From: an uncultured Chloroflexia bacterium
Lineage (GTDB): Bacteria; Chloroflexota; UBA6077; JACCZL01
NCBI GenBank assembly: GCA_963765765.1
Contig: CAVXYC010000010.1
Span: forward strand, 160,001 to 224,000
DNA: 64,000 nt
Direction: 5' to 3'
Positions 49,814 to 64,000 of the stretch are shown here, one piece after another (position 1 is the first letter of the stretch; every line of letters begins with the position of its first letter). A program made the position numbers and the translations under genes. A model generated the notes under the pieces. The model was given only the letters and a program-made list of their open reading frames with translations. It was not told the DNA's origin and made no database searches.

Positions 49814-50964
49814 ATGGTCGCCAACACGAGTAGCGACGATCTTTCGAGAAATAACCCGTTTTTCCTGATCGATCCATATCGAGAATTTCTTCGCGACGAA
49901 GGGCGTTCCCGGTAGTCGAGCAATACTCGGTGAATGTTTTCGAGATCGAGCTGGAGCCGTGGAAGCGGCTCGGCGGTCTGGGATCGTACGTACACCTGGA
50001 AGGTCGCGGCGACTACTGCAACTGCTACGTGGTTAAGATCCCTCCCGGAGAGCAGCTCAACTCCGAGAAGCACGTATTTGACAAGGTCGTGTATGTCTTC
50101 CAGGGCCGTGGCTCGACGACGATCGAGCTGCCTAGCGGCAAACGCAACTCATTCGAGTGGGGACCGGGCAGCATGTTTGGCATCCCGCTCAACGCTCGGC
50201 ACCAGATCTTCAATGGCTCGGGCTCGGAGCCGGCAATTCTCGCGTGCAGCACCAACGCACCGATCTACATGAATCTGGTCCACAACACCGACTTCATCTT
50301 CGACAACCCATTCATCTTCCAGGAGCGACTTGGCGAAGAGCGTTACTTCTCCGGCGAAGGTGAGTTCCGCCAGGTGCGCCCCGGCCGCCACCAGTGGGAA
50401 ACCAACTTCGTATCCGACATCGTGAGCTTTGAGCTGCCGGTCTGGAATGAGCGCGGCGCTGGTGGCCGCAACATCATGTTCACGCTGGCGGATAGCCCGA
50501 TGCACATCCACCTTTCGGAGTTTCCGGTGGGGACGTACAAGAAGGCGCATCGACATGACTCGGGCGCGCACATCTTCATCGTGACGGGAGAGGGCTACAG
50601 CTTGCTCTGGCACGAGGGTCAGGATCCAGTCACCACGCGCAAAGTCGACTGGAAGCTCGGGTCGCTTTTCGCGCCGCCGGACGGACCGACCTATCACCAG
50701 CATTTCAATACCGCCTCCGCGCCGTCACGCTACCTGGTCACTGGCTTCTCCGGTGCTCGCTATCCCGTGCTCGAGAGCGCGCGACGACGGAACGAGGCCA
50801 GGATGAGTGACAAGTCGATCAAGCAAGGTGGATCTCAGGTCGAGTATGAGGACGAGGACCCACGGATCTTTGACCTCTTTCGATCCGAGCTCACCACGCG
50901 GGGGGCGTCACCGAAGATGGAGCGTTACCTCGGGGCTCGCGCTGGCAAGAAGTCGTGGCCATGA
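49814..50964 (+). CDS. Bicupin protein (frameshift near 49905)
   Basis: FEWGPGSMFGIPLNARHQIFN, YKKAHRH..AH, YHQHFN. ATG at 49814 after ggagg. Confidence 0.82.
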
Positions 50965-52519: not shown

Positions 52520-54629
52520 ATGGACTATTTCGCTCAAACGCTTCAGATCATCGGCGGCATCCTGAGCAACCCCATGTACTGGGTAGCGCTCTTTGCGACG
52601 ATCTTGCTGACCGGCCCAATTGGTCTTATCCCCGGCGTCGGGGCCACCACGGTTCTGGTCATCGCGCTTCCATTTGTGATTCTCAATCTCGATCCGCTGA
52701 TCGGCCTGGTGTTCATCGCGGGAATGCTGTCGCTGGGCAATACCATGGACATCATTCCCGCGGTGCTCCTGGGATATCCCAGCGGCGCTACGGCGGTTGA
52801 CTTTCTGGAAGGCCACCAGCTTGCCAGGCGTGGACTGGGCGCCCGAGTACTGGGCGCCAGCTACGCCGTATCCATGATCGGCGGGCTTATCGGCGCAACC
52901 ACGCCTGGCGTTCGCGATGCCCGGGCTCTGCGTGCGTTCATCGTGAATTTCTCATACGCTGAGATCGCCGCTATGGCGCTGTTTGGCGTCAGCATGGTGG
53001 CGATCCTCTCGCGGGGCGCCGTCATGAAGGGGCTTGGGTCCGCCTCATGGGCTTACTTCTTGCGAGCATCGGCGTGCTGCCCATTAGCGGCGTCGACCGA
53101 TTCACGTTCGACAACATCTACCTCTGGGATGGCATACCGCTGGTGGCGTTCCTCCTGGGAGTGTTCGCGTTCCCGGAGCTTGTGGACCTCAGCATGAGCC
53201 GGCAGCCCGTCGCCGCGAATAGCACGGTTTCCAATCGTGAGGTCTGGATAGGGTTCAAGGAAGGACTGAAGCGCTGGCGAACAATCCCCCGCCAGAGCCT
53301 CTTTGGCGTCTTCATGGGCTCAATACCTGGTATTGGCGGCGCGACGATTGAATGGCTCTCCTATGCACTGGGAATTGCCTTCTCCAAGGATAAATCGCAG
53401 TTCGGAAAGGGCAGCATGGACGGCATCCTCTTCACCGAGTCCGCCCAGAGCGCCAAGGAGGCGGGGCAGGCAATCCCCACACTCGCGTTTGGTATTCCGG
53501 GCGGATCCACTGGGCACTTTGCCTGGCCGCGATGGTGTCATATGGGATTGCGCCCGGCCTCGGTATGTTCACGACAAACATGCACATCACGATGGGCATC
53601 GTCCTGACCATCGGCCTTGGCAACCTGATCGGCGCGATCATGGCGCTATTCATCAGCGCCCAGGTGGCCCGCCTCACGCTGGTGCCTTACGCTTTTGTGG
53701 CGGGAATGATGCTGCCACTGATGTTCCTGAGCGCCTTCCAGGCCCGATTTCAGCTTGGCGATATCGTTGATGCTGCTTGCGATCGGCATCCTGGGACTCG
53801 CGCTGAAATGGTTTGGCTGGCCACGCCCGCCGATGATCATTGCGTTCGTCCTCGCTCCGGTCCTGGAACAAAATCTCTGGACCGCCGTGGGTGTAAACGG
53901 GCCTGCAGGCCTGCTCTCTCGTCCTTACGCCATAGCAATCCTGATTCTGGCGGGCATCACAGCTGTTTATCTGACTCGCGGATGATGGCCGACGGTGAGA
54001 AGTCGTGCCCTGGCGTCCGTGCACGAAGTCCTGCGACACAAGGATACCGGCGCCGTCATCAGCGGTGGGGCAGTTGCACTCTCGAGCCGAATGAACCGAC
54101 GCACCCGCCCCCGCGCATCGCGCCCACGTCGCTATCGTTGGAAATGGGAATATCTATTCTGGGCGGCGTTGATGGCCATTGTTGGTGGCGTCTTCTTGCG
54201 GCGAGAGCCTCACATACGAGGGCGCATCGCGATTCTTCCCATTGCTGGCCAGCATAGCTTTCCTGCTTGTCATGGCAGTGATCATCATTCGGGAGATCAT
54301 GGATCCGAACCGTGATCGCGGAGAGGTGATGGACATCGCCATGCGCACCGGGAACGAGCCGGAGGCGTCCGAGCGCTTCTAAGCACCCTGGCGTGGATGG
54401 CGGCATTCGTGGTCGCGATGGGGCATTGTGGGCTTCCGATCACGGCGATTCTGTTCCCAGTCGTGTTCATTCCAGCGAATCTGGAATGGCGCGGGAAGAA
54501 ACTGCTCTGGGTGTTGCTTCCGGTCGGCGCTCAGCGCGTTCGTGGTGCTCGTGCTTCTTGACAGCATGATGCACGTTGTCTGGCCGGATCGATTCATCTG
54601 GAACTGGTCTACGGGCGGGCGCGTACTAA
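52520..54629 (+). CDS. TctA-family permease, apparently fused to a TctB-like C-terminal domain (multiple frameshifts)
   Basis: GLIPGVG, IPAVLLGYP, EGHQLARRG, IPTLAFGIPG, WPRPPMIIAFVL, followed by 4-5 extra TM segments ending VVWP. Confidence 0.78.
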
Positions 54630-54666: not shown

Positions 54667-56521
54667 GTGGGGCGGCCCACTGATGGCGCGACCGCGCATG
54701 GCACGGTCGCGCTTCGCAATCCACCGGAGCGCCCGATGATTCCTCGCGCACTCGTCGTTCGAGTGCTGTTGGTCGTACTCGTATTGGTCGTCGCGGTCTC
54801 GCCGTCGATTCTTCAACCTCGACTCAGAAGCGCAGAGATCCAGACCGAGGCATTACTCTCGGACATGCAGCGGCTTGTTGATCAAGTAAACGCAATAGAC
54901 CACAGCGCTCTCTTAGGCATCAAGAAAGCAGCGGTCGCGAGCGGAAACCCTCTTTCCATAGCTCAGGCAAATGCCTCACTGGCCACGGAAGCGCAGACCC
55001 GTGCCGCCGCGGTCATGAAGCTATGGCTGACCCGCCTGGACCGTGAAACCGGACTCCCGCCCACGTCGCTCGTCCCATCCATACCTCGATTCATCTACGG
55101 CGATACCGGCGCCGATTTTCTGCCGCATTTTGGCATCGCTGTGCAGCTTCTCTCACCGGATGAGTACGGACTGATTCTCAACATGCTGTCCAACGAAAGG
55201 CGCTTGACGACTGGCGTGCCCGAGGCCATCGACCTCACGCTCGATCGGGAAACATCGATGGACACCGATGAGGCCATTTTTGACGCGGCCGAATACGCCA
55301 AGGACGGCCTACTGCCGCTCATTGAGCGACTTGGCACGGAGCCATGGCTTGGTAGGGCGCGCGAGGTGGCCGACTCGATCATTGCGGCCGCCAGCGTTCG
55401 GACTCCCAAGCAGGGAAGCGTTCCCGCCAACTCGACGGAAGTGAATGGCGACATGCTGCAAGTGCTCGCGCGGGTCTACTGGGCGACACGCGACATAAAG
55501 TATCTCGAGGCAGCCGACCGGATCGCGCTGACGTACCTTGAGGACGTGCTACCGAAGACAACCTACCTTCCTCCGAATCAATGGAACTTCATTGAGAACG
55601 AGCCGATTGGACGACGTCGGTTGAGGCTCTCCGATCACGGGAATGAAGTGATCGCTGGTCTCATTGAGTGGCACCTCGTTGAGTCCGCGTTGGAGCGTCC
55701 TGGGGTGGAGACTCATCGGCAAACAATCCGGCGCATGCTCGATCGAATTCTGCAGACGGGTCGGAATGAGGACGGTATGTGGCTGCGCGTGATTGAGATT
55801 CCGTCAGGTCGAGTGGAACAGCCTGGGGTGACCGACAACTGGGGATACGTCTTTCAGGCGTTCATGGCTCAGTCCGAAATCGAGCGCCAATTCCCCAACG
55901 GCGATACGGAAGTTGCCGATCGCTACGACGCCGCGGTGATCCGGGCACTCCAATCCTTACCGAAGTATCGAGACTATGCCTGGCAAAACGGCGAGATGGA
56001 TGGTTACGCCGATGCACTCGAGAGCGTGTTCTACCTGTTAGACAAATTCCCGGTGCAGGTGGCGGCGGAATGGACCGACGAGGAGATGAACGGCCTCTAC
56101 CGGTATCAGAAGCATGACGGGCACGTGCTCGAGCGTGATCTCGACGGCAATTTCATGCGGACGTCGCTGCTCTACTCATCGTGGCTGATGCGTGGATCCC
56201 GTCTGTCTCCGTGGGACCTCGCAAGTGAACCTGGGTGCCGCGGTTGACCGCGAGTGCACCGTGTTTTCGCTCGACTCGAGCTCGGATTGGTCCGGGCGAG
56301 TTGTGTTCGACACGCCTCGCTCGCGCGACAATTTCAACCTTCCCTTCGACTACGCGCGATTGAACAAGTGGCCAGAGTGGTTTGTGGCTGATCCGGTAAA
56401 GAACTATCAGATCTCGGGCATGCTCGGGGAGCAGGTAACGTCGGGGCAGGCACTCGCCGACGGCCTGGCAGTCACGCTCACACCCGGACAGCAAGGCTCG
56501 CTGAGGATCTGTCCGGGGTAG
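54667..56521 (+). CDS. Exported hypothetical protein, probable (alpha/alpha)-barrel glycosidase-like (frameshift near 56230)
   Basis: N-terminal TM; AEYAKDGLLP, EVNGDMLQ, DHGNE, DNWGY, DGYAD, DGNF. Confidence 0.6.
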
Positions 56522-56714
56522 GCGAATGCCCTACTCCTCACCCAAAGTGCGAGGGATCGCGGTGTGAAGCCGTCGGGCCTGATATGGCCAGACCGGCTCC
56601 TAGTCCCTTTGGAAGAAGACTGGGTGAGGGAAGAGCGACCTCTCAAAGCCAGCACGATGCCCCGCATGCCCGCCGCACGTCACGTGTAATATTCCCGCGA
56701 AGGAGCTGTTATTC

Positions 56715-58893
56715 ATGGCCCACCACGCTGTCATCGATCCCCGTCCCGGCTGACTACCGAGATGCGCGCCTTTGCGCTGTCTACCTGGCGCCGGACCTCC
56801 TGAAGGCCATGGGTGCAGCGACTGACGATGTCGTTCGAATCACCACACATAGGGAGCGAACAGTGCTGGCCCGTGTGGCCGGGCCCTTTGTGGACGGCGC
56901 GCCTGAAAGCATTCAGATCGATCGCTTCACGCGTCAGGCTCTGAAGGCTTATCCGCATGAGGAGGTGCACCTCGAGCTCGTGGATCCCCAGCCGACGCCC
57001 GAGCTTGCGCTGGTACCCGGTGTGGATATGAGTCAGCGCTATAACCCGCAACTTGTTCCGCAGCTCAAGCGAGTCCTGGCCCAGAACCGGACCCCCGTGC
57101 GGCGAGGCATGATGCTGTACGTGCAACTTCCGGACGGGCTGGCTGGAATTGCCTATGACGTCCACTTCGTCGGCGGTAACGAAGGAATCGTCACGCAGGA
57201 CACGGCGCTCTGGCTGATTCAGGACGATCACGATCACGGCCCAGACGATCACGACCACGAACATGATCGGCGATCGGAGACGGTTGTCGACACAACGTAC
57301 GAAGACATCGGCGGCCTGAGCGCGCAGATCCGCGAGGTGCGTGAATTCGTGGAGCTACCGCTGGTCTTTCCCCAGGTCTACCGACAGCTCGGGATCAACC
57401 CGCCCAAGGGCGTGATCTTTTTTGGTGCGCCTGGGACCGGCAAGACGCTACTTGCGCGCTCGGTCGCGAATGAGATCAACGCGCGATTCTTCTACATCAA
57501 CGGTCCCGAGGTAATCGGTACCTACACCGGTCAGACCGAGGAGAATCTGCGTAAGATATTCGCCGACGCCAGTACTGAGCCGCCATCGATCATCTTCATC
57601 GATGAGCTTGACGCTATCGCCCCGGTTCGGCGTATGGCCTCGACGATGTCGGATTCGCGGGCTGTGACTCAGCTTCTCGCACTCCTGGATGGGCTGAAGC
57701 GCGCCGAGGGCGTGATGGTGATCGGAACCACGAATCGGATCGAGGCGATTGATCCAGCACTCCGCCGGGCAGGGCGGTTCGATCGAGAGATCTACTTCCC
57801 AACTCCGTCATCGGATGCTCGCGAGCAGATTCTCCGCGTGCATACCCGCGAAATGCCGCTCAGTGACGATGCGATCGAAAACATTCCGTCGGTTGCCGAT
57901 CGGGCATATGGTTATGTGGGCGCCGATCTCATGGAGCTCAGTCGAGAGGCGGGGTTGAACGCGCTGCGAAGGGCTTCCCAGGAGTTTATCGCCGCGCCAT
58001 CGCTCGCCTCGTATCCCCGACCTGAGAAGCTGATCATCACCGGTGGCGATTTTGATGCGGCGCTCAAACGCGTGCGGCCCGCCTCCATGCGTGAATCGCT
58101 TATAGCCTTCCCCACGGTCACGTGGAACGATGTAGGAGGCCTGGAGCACGTCAAGAAACGTCTGAGGGACCTGGTGGAGCAGCCTCTGCGTCATCCTGAA
58201 CAGTTCGCCGAGATAGGCCTCTCCACGAACCTTGGAGTGCTGCTGTACGGCCCGCCCGGAACCGGAAAAACCCTGCTGGCTAAGGCCATTGCGAGAGAGT
58301 CTGGGGTCAATTTCATACCGATTCAAGGGCCCGAATTATTCTCACAGTGGCTCGGTGAGTCCGAGGAGAGCGTAAGACACATCTTCAACGTTGCCCGCCG
58401 CGCCTCTCCATGCATTGTGTTCTTCGATCAGCTCGACGCGGTGCTGTCACATCGTGGCGACGGCGATCACGAGGGCTCGCGTGCTCCGCAGCGCGTGGTG
58501 AACCAGCTTCTGGCCGAGCTCGATGGCATGGAGCAGCTCGGCGACGTCATCGTCATCGGTGCTACCAATCGGATCGCCATGGTGGATCCGGCGGCGTTAC
58601 GACCGGGGCGGTTCGGCGTTCACCTGCACGTAGGCTTACCCGACGAGCATGATCGCGCCGAGATTCTCCGCATTCATCTCCGCGATGCGGCGATCGAGCC
58701 AGGCTCCACGACGGAAAATTTGATCTCTCACTTACTCCCCATGACAGATGGGCTCTCCGGTGCGGATCTGGCATTCATGTGTCAGACCGCAAAGCTCGAT
58801 GCCATGCAGGAAGTGGACTTTCAAGCGGCGCCTCGCCTGGCACCGCGCCATTTTGAAGATGTCCTGCCAGAGCTTTCCTCGCGGGAGAACTAG
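56715..58893 (+). CDS. Cdc48/p97/VAT-like double AAA+ ATPase
   Basis: N domain; D1 GAPGTGKT / IFIDELD / ALRRAGRFDRE; D2 GPPGTGKT / FFDQLD / ALRPGRF. aggag RBS before ATG 56715 (one probable extra C). Confidence 0.92.
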
Positions 58894-58905
58894 CTGCTAG
58901 GCGAG

Positions 58906-59019
58906 CCCTGGGACCGTGGGCGGCCCACCCGTACCTGCCAATGCGTAGCCAGAGGCGAGGAACAGGGTGTTGATGGACGAGGCATGATCGGGACGGGCGG
59001 GCCGCCCGCGGTCCCAGGG
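58906..59019. repeat. REP-like inverted repeat element, copy 1
   Basis: 27-bp arms ccctgggaccgtgggcggcccacccgt / acgggcgggccgcccgcggtcccaggg. Confidence 0.8.
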
Positions 59020-59027
59020 AGGCGAAT

Positions 59028-60181
59028 CTACGCCGGGGCCATTTCCGCGGTGGCCGTTTCCGCGGTGGCCGTTCCACGGTAGCCATTGATTCCAGCACGT
59101 AACAGCGCTCCGGCGGGATCCGCAGAAATACGCGTTGGCCTTCATTCAGCACCGTGAACGGCTCACCTTTCACCCGTACGAGACGTCCGTTTAGATCGAG
59201 TTGATACTCGATCGTGTCCCCGAGATATTGCGCCGTTGCCACAGTCGCCTCGATGACGTTGTCCTTCTCGTTCGGAGGTGTGTCGCTCAGCAACACGCCC
59301 TCGGGCCGAAACCCCATCATCACCGCGCTGCCCACCGTTGCCCACTCAGGCAGAGGGGCTACGAGCTCTCCCCAGGCGGAGTCGATCAAGCCGGCGCCTC
59401 CCGGAGGGCCGAGTCGACTAATCATCCCATCGAGAAGGTTCGTGCGCCCAAGGAAGTTGGCTACAAACGACGAATTCGGTTCCAGATACACATCGCGTGG
59501 AGCACCGGACTGCACAATCACTCCGTCGCTCATCAACGCAACGGTGTCGGACATGGCCAGCGCCTCGAGCTGATCGTGTGTCACGTACAACGTGGTGATC
59601 CCAAGCCGATGCACCAGTGACTTGATCTCGTGACGCATATCCTCTCGCAGCTTTGCGTCGAGATTTGAGAGCGGCTCGTCGAGCAATAAGACAGTGGGCT
59701 CGTGTACCAGCGAGCGGGCCAGAGCCACGCGCTGTTGTTGTCCTCCCGAGAGCAGTGGTGCTGGCCGATCAGCCAGATGGTCCAGCTGAACCAGGCTCAG
59801 CGCACGCATGACCTTTTCTTTAATATCGCTCTTGGAGATGCGCTTGTGACCGTGCTCGAGAGGGAAGGCCACGTTCTGAAACACTGTCATATGGGGCCAG
59901 ATCGCATAGCTCTGAAACACCATGCCGATGTCGCGTTGGTGTGGAGGTGTCAGTGTTCGCGCCTCTGGGTCGAACACCACATCGTCACCGATCTGGATCT
60001 GGCCGCCACTTGGTATCTCGAGGCCGGCGATGGAGCGCAACGTGCTCGTCTTGCCGCAGCCTGAAGGGCCCAGAAGGGTAAAAAATTGCCCGTGCTCCAC
60101 GGTGAATGAGACGCCTCGCACAGCGCGTACATCCGCTGAGCCGGTGCGGTAGGTCAACTCCAGGTCAGTAACTTTCAGCAT
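59028..60181 (-). CDS. ABC transporter ATP-binding protein (Fe3+/polyamine family, TOBE domain)
   Basis: GPSGCGKT, FQSYAIWPHM, LSGGQQQR, LLDEPLSNLD. Likely ends ETATAETATAEMAPA* after correcting one indel. Confidence 0.92.
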
Positions 60182-60311
60182 GCTGCGCTGCACTCCCGAG
60201 CGTGCGCCCTATACGTGTTGAGCCTCTGGACATTCTAGTCATCATCATCTAGTCCGACAATGAAAACGGCTGCGCGTCAGTAAGCATGCGTCGCGCAGCC
60301 GCTCGAATTCA

Positions 60312-60417: not shown

Positions 60418-61521
60418 ATGATCAGTACCAACCGGCGAGCGTTTCTCAGAATTGTGGGCCTTGGGGCCAGCGCGGCGCTCGTGGCTGCGTGTAGTCAACC
60501 TGCACCGGCAGCTAAGCCAGCCGCGCCGGCGGCATCAGGATCGGGTGCCGCAACAGCGCCCGCGAACCTCATAGATCAGGTCTACGAGGCTGCCAAGAAG
60601 GAAGGCAAACTCGTCTGGTGGGACCAGCATACGCTAGAGGTCTCGTCGCGTTACATCGATGCGTTCAAGAAGAAGTATCCAGGCATCGAAGTGGAGTACT
60701 TCAACCAGACGGCTGATGAGCTGAAGACGAAAGCCGTTGCGGAAGCGCGCGCCGGACGCATGTCGTTTGACGTAATCGACTCCGGAAGTAATTACACGGC
60801 ATACAAAGATGCCGGCATATTCGCGGATAACTCGGATGTGATCGTCGCTGCCGGTGTTCCCGCGAGCGACGTCTATGAGGGATCATTCTCCCCCGAATAC
60901 ACTGTGAACGGCGTCGCATATAACCCCAATCTCGTGAAGGTGGAGGAGCTTCCGAAGACCTGGGAGGGGTTCCTGGAGCCGCAGTGGAAGGGCAAGCTGG
61001 CAGTAGAGACGCGCTTCCGTTCCTTCGTCTACGGAACGCCCTTCATGGGCGGCGAAGACAAGGTCGCCGAGTATCTCGGCAAACTCAAGGAGCAGAACCC
61101 CCGACTGACGAAGGGCGACGCCGATAGCAATACCATGCTGGTGGCAGGCGAGTACGCCGTCCTGGTCGGTGCCTATCTACACAACGTGGTCAAGTACGAG
61201 CCCAAAGGGCAGCCATGGGGCTTCGCTCCACTGAATGAGGTCTACGTAGCTCCTCAGGGACCGGGATATACCGTTCCCGAGAAAGCACCGCATCGTCAGG
61301 CAGGCCGTCTATTCCTCCACTGGCTCGTTGGCAATGAAGGCATCGCACTCATGGATGAGCTGCGCTTCAAGGGGAACCCTGCGCCTGGTTCCGGCACCGG
61401 GCCGTCGAAGCTTCTCGAAGAACGGAAAATCACGCCAAAGACCCCGCCGCTCGAGTACGAGATCAACTATTCGAAATACGAGAAGCGATACGGCGTCGCG
61501 CTCGGCCTTCCGAGCGTCTAA
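60418..61521 (+). CDS. ABC substrate-binding lipoprotein (Tat-like signal; Fe3+/polyamine family)
   Basis: TNRRAFL..VAAC; EAAKKEGKLVWW; LPKTW..L.P.WKGK; APH..A.LF..W. Confidence 0.9.
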   Translation: MISTNRRAFLRIVGLGASAALVAACSQPAPAAKPAAPAASGSGAATAPANLIDQVYEAAKKEGKLVWWDQHTLEVSSRYIDAFKKKYPGIEVEYFNQTADELKTKAVAEARAGRMSFDVIDSGSNYTAYKDAGIFADNSDVIVAAGVPASDVYEGSFSPEYTVNGVAYNPNLVKVEELPKTWEGFLEPQWKGKLAVETRFRSFVYGTPFMGGEDKVAEYLGKLKEQNPRLTKGDADSNTMLVAGEYAVLVGAYLHNVVKYEPKGQPWGFAPLNEVYVAPQGPGYTVPEKAPHRQAGRLFLHWLVGNEGIALMDELRFKGNPAPGSGTGPSKLLEERKITPKTPPLEYEINYSKYEKRYGVALGLPSV

Positions 61522-61656: not shown

Positions 61657-63456
61657 ATGAGCGCAGTTGATATAGGTCGTTCCTCCGCGCGCACGTGGTC
61701 CTTCCATATGCCTCGCCGGTTGACGACGCAGGAAATCGTTTACGCGATTCTGTTCCTTCTCGTTGCGAACCTCGTTCTGGTTCCGCTAGGGATGGTGATT
61801 GCCACGAGCCTCAACGTTGGGCCGATTACGGCTCCCGGCGAGGTGGGATTCACGCTCTCGAATTACGTGCGCGCGTGGACTAGCCCAACGACGCACGCGG
61901 TCATCATGAATACGCTGATCTTCGCCTTCTTCTCGACGTTTCTGTCAATGACTCTGGGGGTGTTCTTCGCATTCATGGTCGAACGCACCGACATGCCGCT
62001 GAAAAACTTCGCGTATGCCGTGGTACCACTGACCATCGCAATGCCCGGACTTCTCTACGGAATCGCCTGGGTCCTACTTTTAAGTCCGAATATTGGCCTA
62101 TTCAACCTTGCCTTGATGGGGCTGTTCGGGGCTGAGCAGGGCATTCTCACGAGCTGGGCGCACGTCGGCCTGTCAGAGGCACCGATCAAGCCGTACAGCA
62201 TGGCGGGAATGATTTTCGTGGACGCCATTCGTGGCGTGGGCGTCGTCTTTCTTATGACCGTGGGGCTCTTCCGCAACATGGATCCTTCTCTAGAGGAGGC
62301 CGCGGCGGTCTCCGGTGCCGCCCCGGCAACGGTGGCCAACAAAGTCACATTGCGGGTGATGATGCCGGGTATCCTGGCCGCGTTCGTATACGCGCTCACG
62401 GGTAATCTCGAGACATTCGATATCCCAGCGATCATGGGTCTGCCAGCGGGCATCCATCTGCTCTCCACGAAGATCTACCTGCTCTCAAAGACGGATGATC
62501 ACGGCATCGCGAGTGCGCTGGGCGTTGTCTTTGTGGTCCTCGCCGTCTTCTTCGTCTGGTGGTATTCGCGGCTGACCAAGCGAATCGAATCGTTCAGTAC
62601 GGTCACAGGCAAGGGATATCGACCAAGACAAATGCGGATTGGACGATTTAAGTACGTCGCCGTAGCGATCGTCATGCTGTATCTCGGCATCGTCGTGGTG
62701 GCGCCGTTTTTTGTCATGCTATGGGCTAGCATCCTGCCGTACTATCAGATCCCGAGCTGGCAGGCTTTGCAGTCCGTGAACCTCGATGCCTACAAGTTCG
62801 TCATCACCAATCCGTGGGGAGTCACGGCAATGCGTAACACACTCATCCTGACGTTCGCGGCGCCAACGGCGACGATGCTGATCGCTACGCTCATTTCCTG
62901 GTTTGTGGTTCGATCGAATATGCCTGGGAAGCGTCTGTTGGACGTCATGGCGTTCCTGCCACACACAGTCCCCAGCATCATCATTGCGCTCGCCATGATC
63001 TATCTCTTCCTTACCGTCCCGTGGCGCCTCATCCCTATCTACGGAAGCGTGTGGATTATTAGCCTGGCCATAGCCACTCGATATCTGGCTTTTGGCTCTC
63101 GAACGATGCACGGTTCGGTCATCCAGATCCATAAGGACCTGGAGGAGGCTGCGCAAGTTGGCGGAGTGTCCTGGGGCAAGGCGTTTCGCTACATTGTGCT
63201 GCCATTGCTCTTCCCGGCCATCGTCTCAGGTTGGGTATTCGTGGCGTTGCACTCGATCCGCGAGGTCTCCATGGCGCTCCTTCTGTATTCGCCCGATAGT
63301 CGAGTGATCTCACTTTTGATGTGGGACACCTGGCACAACGGTGAGGTCGCCATCGCATCGGCCACGGGTGTTCTGCTCATGATCGCGATCGGCTTCATCA
63401 TTCTCGCGGGTCGCCTGGTGGATCAGCGGCGGTCTAAGATGAAGGCTGGGCTTTAG
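61657..63456 (+). CDS. ABC permease (FbpB-like, two EAA modules)
   Basis: MDPSLEEAAAVSGA, TVTGKGYRP, LEEAAQVGG. Confidence 0.93.
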   Translation: MSAVDIGRSSARTWSFHMPRRLTTQEIVYAILFLLVANLVLVPLGMVIATSLNVGPITAPGEVGFTLSNYVRAWTSPTTHAVIMNTLIFAFFSTFLSMTLGVFFAFMVERTDMPLKNFAYAVVPLTIAMPGLLYGIAWVLLLSPNIGLFNLALMGLFGAEQGILTSWAHVGLSEAPIKPYSMAGMIFVDAIRGVGVVFLMTVGLFRNMDPSLEEAAAVSGAAPATVANKVTLRVMMPGILAAFVYALTGNLETFDIPAIMGLPAGIHLLSTKIYLLSKTDDHGIASALGVVFVVLAVFFVWWYSRLTKRIESFSTVTGKGYRPRQMRIGRFKYVAVAIVMLYLGIVVVAPFFVMLWASILPYYQIPSWQALQSVNLDAYKFVITNPWGVTAMRNTLILTFAAPTATMLIATLISWFVVRSNMPGKRLLDVMAFLPHTVPSIIIALAMIYLFLTVPWRLIPIYGSVWIISLAIATRYLAFGSRTMHGSVIQIHKDLEEAAQVGGVSWGKAFRYIVLPLLFPAIVSGWVFVALHSIREVSMALLLYSPDSRVISLLMWDTWHNGEVAIASATGVLLMIAIGFIILAGRLVDQRRSKMKAGL

Positions 63457-63805: not shown

Positions 63806-64000
63806 CTACGCTTTCTGCGCGTCAAACTCCGGAGCATTCTCAAAATACACGGGGTGTGAATAGCCCAGGTGTTTGAACATTCCGTTCTGGGAGGCAATGA
63901 TCTTCGCCGGCTTGGATGGGTCGGAGTTGAAGCGCTGGATCACCTGGTTCTGTGGGACCCAGATGACGTCGCCCTTCTTCCACTCCCAACGCGTGGGCTT
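63806..64000 (-). CDS. C-terminal part of a cupin protein (runs off window)
   Basis: KPTRWEWKKGDVIWVPQNQVIQRFNSDPSKPA..FENAPEF..*. Confidence 0.75.
   Translation of the reverse strand, partial: KPTRWEWKKGDVIWVPQNQVIQRFNSDPSKPAKIIASQNGMFKHLGYSHPVYFENAPEFDAQKA

Follow-up and report, generated by a model that had tools for sequence, protein, structure and literature searches.

A bacterial Cdc48/VAT-like ATPase clade with glutamine at the D2 Walker B position and a frequently linked bicupin gene

The window analyzed here is a 64,000-nucleotide stretch of an uncultured Chloroflexia bacterium (GCA_963765765.1, contig CAVXYC010000010.1, positions 160,001 to 224,000). It encodes a Cdc48/VAT-like AAA+ ATPase in which the catalytic Walker B glutamate of the second ATPase ring (D2) is replaced by glutamine, giving Asp-Gln (DQ) in place of Asp-Glu (DE). 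As far as the compared sequences tell, DQ in D2 is the trait of a natural, old and monophyletic subfamily, apparently an undescribed bacterial branch of the Cdc48/VAT family. In most DQ loci, a gene for a bicupin metalloprotein lies beside the ATPase gene. We hold it moderately probable that D1 is a complete motor, that D2 is an ATP-bound non-catalytic ring, and that the bicupin is the client or working partner of an ATPase that feeds no protease. In the literature searched, in which subscription journals were not covered, no paper was found on the DQ-type clade or on a cupin-Cdc48 pairing, nor was any client-specific role (remodeling, assembly or metal loading) found for the Cdc48-type family.

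Residue numbers refer to P0001, the product of an open reading frame at 56584–58893 on the forward strand (769 codons and a stop), whose body is homologous to its relatives from approximately 56737. A Pfam search returned an N-D1-D2 layout with two PF00004 domains (287.8 bits) and two AAA_lid_3 domains. The N domain (56737–57198, residues ~52–205) is CDC48_N-like, although the match to PF02359 is weak (23.6 bits, cut-off 35.1). The D1 module (57292–58098) is fully canonical with a GAPGTGKT Walker A motif (57424–57447), a PSIIFIDELD Walker B motif with Glu341 at 57604–57606, the sensor Asn384, the arginine fingers Arg395 and Arg398, and a Tyr/Phe pore loop. The D2 module (58111–58818) presents a GPPGTGKT Walker A motif (58249–58272), a pore loop SQWLGESE (SQWLG at 58342–58356), a sensor 1 GATN, and arginine fingers Arg673 and Arg676 within LRPGRF (58600–58611). 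Its Walker B motif reads PCIVFFDQLD. The CAG codon of Gln616 (58429–58431) was aligned by HMMER to the catalytic glutamate in the IVFLDEID motif of VAT (5vc7/5g4g). A second clade-specific change, Gly678 (58615–58617), converts RPGRFD to RPGRFG directly after the arginine fingers. The protein ends in ...SSREN and has no hydrophobic-Tyr-X (HbYX) motif.

A preliminary description, made from the sequence letters, had reported IIFIDELD in D1, CIVFFDQLD with CAG at 58429–58431 in D2, an intact D2 Walker A motif, SQWLG pore loop and arginine finger, and the absence of an HbYX motif. All of these are present in the translation, and the C-termini proved to be unconserved across the family. The top curated family for P0001 is TIGR01243, the CDC48 family, with 625.6 bits over residues 66–744 and below the cut-off of 802.65. 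The best solved relatives are the Thermoplasma VAT structures (5vc7, 5g4f and 5g4g; best E = 7e-165) followed by p97 and Cdc48, and the alignment to VAT and p97 spans both D1 and D2. The CDC48 family carries a catalytic Walker B glutamate in both rings; P0001 has DE in D1 and DQ in D2. By its domain matches, P0001 is VAT/Cdc48-like in architecture, yet it falls outside of the curated CDC48 family both on score and on the glutamate in both rings.

The glutamine is shared by nearly all close relatives. Among the 119 best database matches (P0003–P0121, clusters at 90% identity), 117 have DQ at the aligned position, and the two DE proteins are long and distant (993 and 1019 amino acids). In alignment A1, which reaches down to 39% identity, Gln616 is invariant in 57/57 sequences. 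The best 150 representatives of 50%-identity clusters included 13 DQ proteins, plus EQ, DH, DN and DD once each. A tree of the D1-D2 region was calculated from 115 sequences, comprising 21 close-family members, every one of them DQ, and 94 of 148 new representatives; inclusion required a length of 600–900 amino acids and exactly two Walker A motifs, leaving out the other 54. All of the DQ proteins together with the EQ, DH, DN and DD variants formed one clade of 36 tips with a support of 0.976, in which P0001 is placed and DE members are absent. Glutamate was found at the D2 Walker B position in 77 of the 79 tree sequences outside of this clade. Two solitary tips within DE clades lack glutamate there (EG and DA). 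Since a single clade holds all DQ proteins and no DE protein, the change is old, monophyletic and retained. Histidine, asparagine and aspartate occur as rare variants inside the clade, never a return to glutamate. Named proteins of Blastococcus and Modestobacter belong to the DQ-type family. Thus, the natural subfamily suggested in the preliminary description is borne out: DQ is conserved in a clade, and the contrary outcome it had named, that close homologs all carry DE, is contradicted.

With respect to the two rings, D1 is preserved throughout alignment A1. The Walker A lysine, the Walker B Asp-Glu pair, the sensor-1 asparagine and both arginine fingers are present in 57/57 sequences and the pore aromatic (Tyr/Phe) in 50/57. 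In D2, Lys562, Trp589 and Arg676 are each retained in 57/57 sequences, Arg673 in 55/57, and Asn662 in 50/57. The mean majority fraction of the large AAA domain is 0.74 for D2 versus 0.80 for D1. Relative to the 79 sequences outside of the clade, the only clade-specific changes in D2 are E616Q, I617L and D678G, and no new acidic residue has been gained. At position 678, glycine is found in 94% of the DQ clade (56/57 sequences of A1), whereas 81% of DE relatives have aspartate. Judged by this conservation, D2 is a maintained ring and not a decaying one. The pattern is the signature of a ring that would be selected for ATP binding and substrate contact without hydrolysis at a normal rate. In engineered AAA proteins, E-to-Q is established to abolish hydrolysis and spare binding. 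By analogy, we infer that D2 has lost hydrolysis and that D1 would act as the sole motor; the ATP-locked holdase suggested in the preliminary description would draw on the same analogy. A parallel is provided by the actinobacterial Cdc48-like protein Cpa, whose D312N/E566Q variant is described as nucleotide-binding and non-hydrolyzing (PMC6017811).

The second line of evidence is the linkage of the ATPase gene to a bicupin gene. A scan of a genome collection yielded 17 loci. A metagenome scan with A1, in which generic AAA motifs served as patterns, returned mostly DE-type relatives and one DQ locus (L077), and was used as a control set. The flanks of all fetched loci were compared to a profile made from the recurring neighbor of the discovery set. 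In that set, 13/18 distinct DQ/EQ loci have a bicupin gene (~370 amino acids) no more than 144 bp from the ATPase gene, and 14/18 have one no more than 1.3 kb away. Because the profile was derived from the discovery neighbors themselves, six held-out DQ loci that had no part in profile building were fetched, and in 6/6 a cupin or bicupin gene was found 0–144 bp from the ATPase gene. When combined, a bicupin gene lies within 144 bp in 19/24 distinct DQ loci. In contrast, a bicupin gene was found within 1.3 kb in 0/59 distinct DE control loci, with one weak 24-bit match at 4.8 kb. The Pfam Cupin_2 family confirmed 7/7 of the neighbors tested. The DQ loci are recorded under Chloroflexota, Actinomycetota, 'Deltaproteobacteria' and Syntrophales.

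The remaining neighbors are variable and include Rieske LigXa-like oxygenases, SBP_bac_5 and NMT1 binding proteins, UbiD-like enzymes and zinc dehydrogenases. Of the cupin, tripartite tricarboxylate transporter and ATP-binding cassette (ABC) transporter genes among which the preliminary description had placed the ATPase, the cupin, as a bicupin, is the conserved signal, and the two transporter types are not conserved partners. At two loci (L055, G026:C49, and L155, G302:C12) four to six consecutive bicupin paralogs share a strand with the one DQ-type ATPase gene beside them, which suggests hetero-oligomeric or multiple clients. At two others (L153 and L154), a pair of short cupin open reading frames (~190–230 amino acids, stop-to-stop) adjoins the DQ ATPase in place of one bicupin, and the partner may here be split into two genes. 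In one Chloroflexota genome (L014/L156, G304:C2, 63–98 kb), two DQ-type ATPase paralogs lie ~11 kb apart. Their identities to the window protein are 64% and 57%, and each has its own adjoining bicupin gene or genes.

The structure of the partner bicupin was predicted with a pLDDT (predicted local distance difference test) of 89.4 and a pTM (predicted template modeling score) of 0.88. The model is closest to the gentisate and salicylate 1,2-dioxygenases 2d40, 2phd and 3bu7, with template modeling scores of 0.5–0.66 and 14–20% identity, followed by oxalate decarboxylase, MncA and seed globulins. None of the curated family cut-offs is reached, and the scores for TIGR02272 and NF049978 are far below. 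The partner is thus predicted to be of the gentisate/salicylate dioxygenase fold class and stands outside of the enzyme families themselves. In the subfamily found in this genome, the N-terminal barrel keeps an HxH..E..H metal site (His111, His113, Glu116 and His153, invariant in 65 sequences) and the C-terminal barrel has lost its metal ligands; a second partner subfamily keeps both metal sites.

The bicupin nearest the ATPase opens with an Arg/Glu-rich tail across subfamilies that are ~20% identical (MEQERTQTQTREQT, MQSRQRVRERTPE and MERELERVRERE). More distant relatives of the bicupin family are without it, and in P0311, P0312, P0314 and P0345 a His-rich N-terminus (e.g., repeated HG) is found where others carry the tail. 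A complex prediction between the N-terminal region of the ATPase (A3, residues 1–205) and the partner bicupin (A4) scored 0.00 in both runs, which speaks neither for nor against binding. In a search for fusions, no bicupin relative of 617–2000 amino acids was found at E ≤ 1e-10, which is weak evidence.

In the genome of the window, the partner-type bicupin is one of 28 bicupin open reading frames and scores 325 bits as compared to at most 110 for the other 27; with the family alignment it is the single bicupin match (654 bits). It is encoded on the reverse strand, 4.9 kb downstream of the ATPase gene. Its 3' end occupies 63806–64000 of the window and the gene continues to the equivalent of 64864 (352 amino acids; G000:C10:223806-224864). 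It is not adjacent to the ATPase gene, being reached past three ABC importer genes that encode an ATP-binding subunit with a TOBE domain (58775–60193, reverse strand), a PhnS-like solute-binding protein (60418–61521, forward strand) and a double permease (61657–63456, forward strand). The cupin meant by the preliminary description is a different gene (49930–50964, forward strand), a distant paralogous bicupin of 80 bits that is not of the partner type. Exactly one partner-type bicupin is likewise present in a genome of the same genus (G167), whose assembly is fragmented and places it on a different contig.

The linker between N and D1 contains a histidine cluster, DDHDHGPDDHDHEHD (57223–57267, residues 214–228), with the pattern DHxHGP..DHxHxH in the core subfamily (identity of approximately 55% or more), of which this gene is a member. 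Across A1, 48/57 sequences have 4–7 linker histidines. Among 53 core members, three are invariant and two are present at ≥90%. Some members of the ATPase family add His-rich N-termini. The cluster would fit a metal-handling role. An N-terminal 'DPRPxDYR' motif, considered as a special extension, was rejected since it aligns with the start of an ordinary CDC48 N domain.

Taken together, a working model can be proposed. D1 would be a complete ATP-hydrolyzing motor that does the pulling by way of its aromatic pore loop. D2 would most likely remain ATP-bound for long periods, stabilizing the hexamer, lining the pore and gripping the substrate. The ATPase would feed no protease: proteasome/HslV (PF00227) had no match in the genome, which is 92% complete, while control genomes were matched, and no conserved C-terminal docking motif was found across the ATPase family. 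Instead, the ATPase would act with the gentisate-dioxygenase-like bicupin encoded nearby, perhaps engaging it by the Arg/Glu-rich N-terminal tail. Assembly, reactivation or metal loading would be the likeliest outcome of such remodeling, and in the core subfamily the linker histidines may take part in metal handling. The ATPase is probably a dedicated servicing motor for the bicupin enzyme; the client role of the bicupin, and any metal role, we infer from linkage and motifs.

A more specific form of this model, a 'cupin activase', is doubtful at present. Driven by ATP, it would unfold a bicupin with a trapped or wrong metal by way of the tail and hold it on the ATP-locked D2 ring. The bicupin could then fold again around the correct metal, which the linker histidines would supply in members of the core subfamily. 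If true, it would be the first dedicated protein machine to proofread the metal of an enzyme by unfolding. A review states that MncA traps its metal at folding, that a wrong metal is correctable only by unfolding, and that a delivery or proofreading system is hypothetical; for cupins, such a step has been put forward as a possibility and never observed (PMC4192464). The precedents of MncA and Rubisco activase make a client role plausible.

Several observations weigh against the reading of a single-motor ATPase that services a bicupin. Glutamine in D2 may permit slow hydrolysis. Among the outer DQ lineages that keep the bicupin pairing, the majority have no histidine cluster, so metal handover cannot have been the ancestral function and the cluster is a later addition. 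Independence from the bicupin profile is confined to the held-out loci and the DE control, and related loci, being kin, do not count as independent samples. Among the 20 linked loci, ~12 pairs are on the same strand and 8 are convergent or divergent; the pair is therefore not always co-transcribed. An adjacent bicupin is absent at four of the 24 DQ loci: the window (where it is 4.9 kb away), L001 (a 5.6-kb contig), L003, and L007, in which the ATPase gene is 1.2 kb from the contig end. In the genome that contains L003 (G305), a search at E ≤ 1e-40 found no member of the A4 subfamily of bicupins, A4 being one of at least two partner subfamilies. Finally, the Arg/Glu-rich tail was noticed post hoc.

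These points have to be considered alongside other explanations of the same data. D2 might hydrolyze ATP usefully, with the water activated by the glutamine or by a neighboring residue, making the protein an ordinary two-motor unfoldase. Such a ring would be expected to keep every other catalytic element, as D2 does down to both arginine fingers and sensor 1, and to be nearly as conserved as D1. We consider this unlikely: no compensating acidic residue appeared in the clade, the aspartate behind the arginine fingers was lost as well, and the variants at position 616 are His, Asn and Asp but never Glu, which argues for selection against glutamate and not for drift. A different role for the bicupin is possible, if still rather improbable, namely that of a cofactor or adaptor that presents other proteins to the ATPase, as Ufd1-Npl4 or p47 do for p97. 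Gene linkage would be equally expected in that case, and Cdc48-type ATPases usually act via partners bound to the N domain. However, the metal site of the N-terminal barrel (His111, His113, Glu116 and His153) is invariant in 65 sequences, which favors an enzyme over a mere adaptor, and the rows of four to six paralogs beside one ATPase fit clients better. It is also conceivable that the protein serves as an unfoldase in general stress or quality control, its cupin neighborhood being a coincidence of catabolic islands. The variety of the remaining neighbors (Rieske oxygenases, solute-binding proteins, UbiD-like enzymes, dehydrogenases) and the 28 bicupin open reading frames of the genome would agree with this. 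Against it stand the linkage in 6/6 held-out loci as compared to 0/59 DE loci and the distance in the window itself: the only partner-type bicupin of the 28 lies less than 5 kb away, for which chance allows ~10 kb out of 6.5 Mb. Coincidence is accordingly very improbable.

Two further explanations concern the quality of the assembly. The ancestral start of the family is the ATG at 56715, preceded by AAGGAG at 56700–56705. The N-termini of homologs (P0003 and P0004) read MAHHAVIDPRPVDYRE; in the window, the frame from this ATG differs from that of the long open reading frame and stops after 12 codons, MAHHAVIDPRPG, at a TGA (56751–56753; start and codons, 56715–56753, forward strand). DNA alignment with a 91%-identical relative (L001) places one surplus base within 56745–56751 (cccGGCTgac versus ccc-GTGgac), and a 151-nt public contig of a related organism (run X4) is without one base at 56745. 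The span 56715–58893, given in the preliminary description, is thus broken by a 1-base insertion. As a result of the frameshift, the recorded window protein (P0002, 676 amino acids) begins 93 residues inside the open reading frame. In the same assembly, rpoB is spread over three frames. The TctA gene of a tripartite tricarboxylate transporter (52520–54257, forward strand) is likewise split in three (52520–53197, 53047–53607 and 53532–54257), and several further TctA genes are frame-broken elsewhere in the genome. Given that essential rpoB and the TctA genes are broken in the same manner, the extra base at the ATPase start is probably an assembly error.

The ATPase gene could instead be a pseudogene in this genome, as the break after 12 codons removes the first strand of the N domain and the recorded protein starts 93 residues late. 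This is distinctly unlikely. Indel errors are common enough in the assembly to have reached rpoB, the other 2.1 kb of the frame contain no stop and share 91% identity with an intact relative, and the related public contig lacks the surplus base. Could the CAG codon itself be a sequencing error or private mutation in a protein that is truly DE? The assembly does carry errors, in rpoB, in TctA and at the start of this gene, and contigs of runs X1, X2, X4 and X11 leave 58386–58467 uncovered (best run word shares 0.46 and 0.31). But the errors observed are indels and not substitutions, and glutamine is found in 117/119 homologs from many independent assemblies and is invariant in A1. This conservation rules out a base-call error, and the likelihood of a true DE protein is close to nil. 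A 258-nt contig from metatranscriptome run X11 is identical to 56746–57003; DNA carry-over is possible and no claim of transcription is made.

Some features of the surrounding genome may be recorded. A second PhnS-like solute-binding protein gene lies just past the partner bicupin (window-equivalent 64.0–66.4 kb, L144), which leaves the bicupin surrounded by genes for transporters. The intervening ABC transporter was considered as a metal importer and this assignment was rejected; its NCBIfam matches fall below cut-off throughout and point variously to polyamine, aminoethylphosphonate, ferric and sulfate families. An open reading frame of 526 amino acids (54667–56247, forward strand) lies immediately upstream of the ATPase. 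Its product begins with a hydrophobic anchor, matched nothing in Pfam and had no counterpart at the fetched loci; it appears to be a genuine protein of no known family. The 28 bicupin open reading frames are a large expansion in a Chloroflexota genome. They are partly in tandem (e.g., C20:212669-215179 and C27:122053-130733), and many of the 27 non-partner bicupins share ...EPWxRxGGxGAY...EIPPG.

Studies of tandem AAA+ machines usually rely on engineered E-to-Q traps. Here, the same substitution has become fixed by nature in the ring that drives p97 as its main motor, and it has persisted across a deep bacterial radiation, offering a natural test of a double-ring unfoldase in which only the first ring would burn ATP. 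The linkage to one metalloenzyme class points to a client-specific motor of the Cdc48 type in bacteria that lack a proteasome. Cultured strains may allow the idea to be put to an experimental test.

Among known systems, VAT of Thermoplasma acidophilum (5vc7, 5g4f, 5g4g) is the best solved relative. It shares the N-D1-D2 layout, the aromatic D1 pore loop, the tryptophan of the D2 pore loop, the sensors and the arginine fingers. Both rings of VAT carry DE, whereas D2 of the window protein carries DQ and Gly678. VAT can dock on the 20S proteasome via its C-terminus. Unlike VAT, the window protein has no HbYX tail, and it has the linker histidine cluster and a bicupin gene partner in a genome in which PF00227 was unmatched. 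The D2 E-to-Q trap of p97/VCP and Cdc48 is the same change at the same position of the same ring. In p97, it is man-made and halts substrate processing, while in the window protein it is natural, clade-wide and under selection. NSF is also a tandem AAA protein of the classic clade; its D1 serves as the motor, and its D2 takes up ATP, hydrolyzes little of it and holds the hexamer together. This division of labor between rings resembles the one proposed here. We know of no report that the D2 ring of NSF keeps a substrate-gripping pore loop; in the window-protein family Trp589 is invariant, and the partners differ (SNAPs and SNAREs for NSF, a bicupin here).

A known bacterial system is Cpa (Rv0435c, MSMEG_0858; eLife 2018). 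Cpa is an actinobacterial Cdc48-like protein of ~730 amino acids that interacts with the proteasome; its D2 is strictly conserved with Glu566 as the catalytic residue, and its D1 is degenerate, lacking the sensor asparagine and arginine finger (PMC6017811). Like the window protein, it is a bacterial N-D1-D2 relative of Cdc48 with one degenerate ring, but the polarity is opposite, since D1 is canonical and D2 altered in the window protein. This distinction is drawn from the description of Cpa: among the best 60 PDB matches no chain is named for Cpa or its organism, all being VAT, p97/VCP, Cdc48, AFG2/SPATA5, NVL or Rix7, and no direct comparison was made. Rubisco activase (Rca, CbbX) offers a functional analogy only, that of an AAA+ ring dedicated to one metabolic enzyme. 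It remodels that enzyme by drawing the RbcL N-terminus through its pore (PMC9951593). Rca has a single ring, belongs to a different AAA+ family and serves a different client; threading of the bicupin by the window protein would be the corresponding act. The window protein has neither the HbYX or other docking tail nor, in its genome, the PF00227 match that would go with the proteasome activators PAN, VAT, Mpa and Cpa. With Gln616, Gly678 and its placement in the tree, it belongs with the DQ clade.

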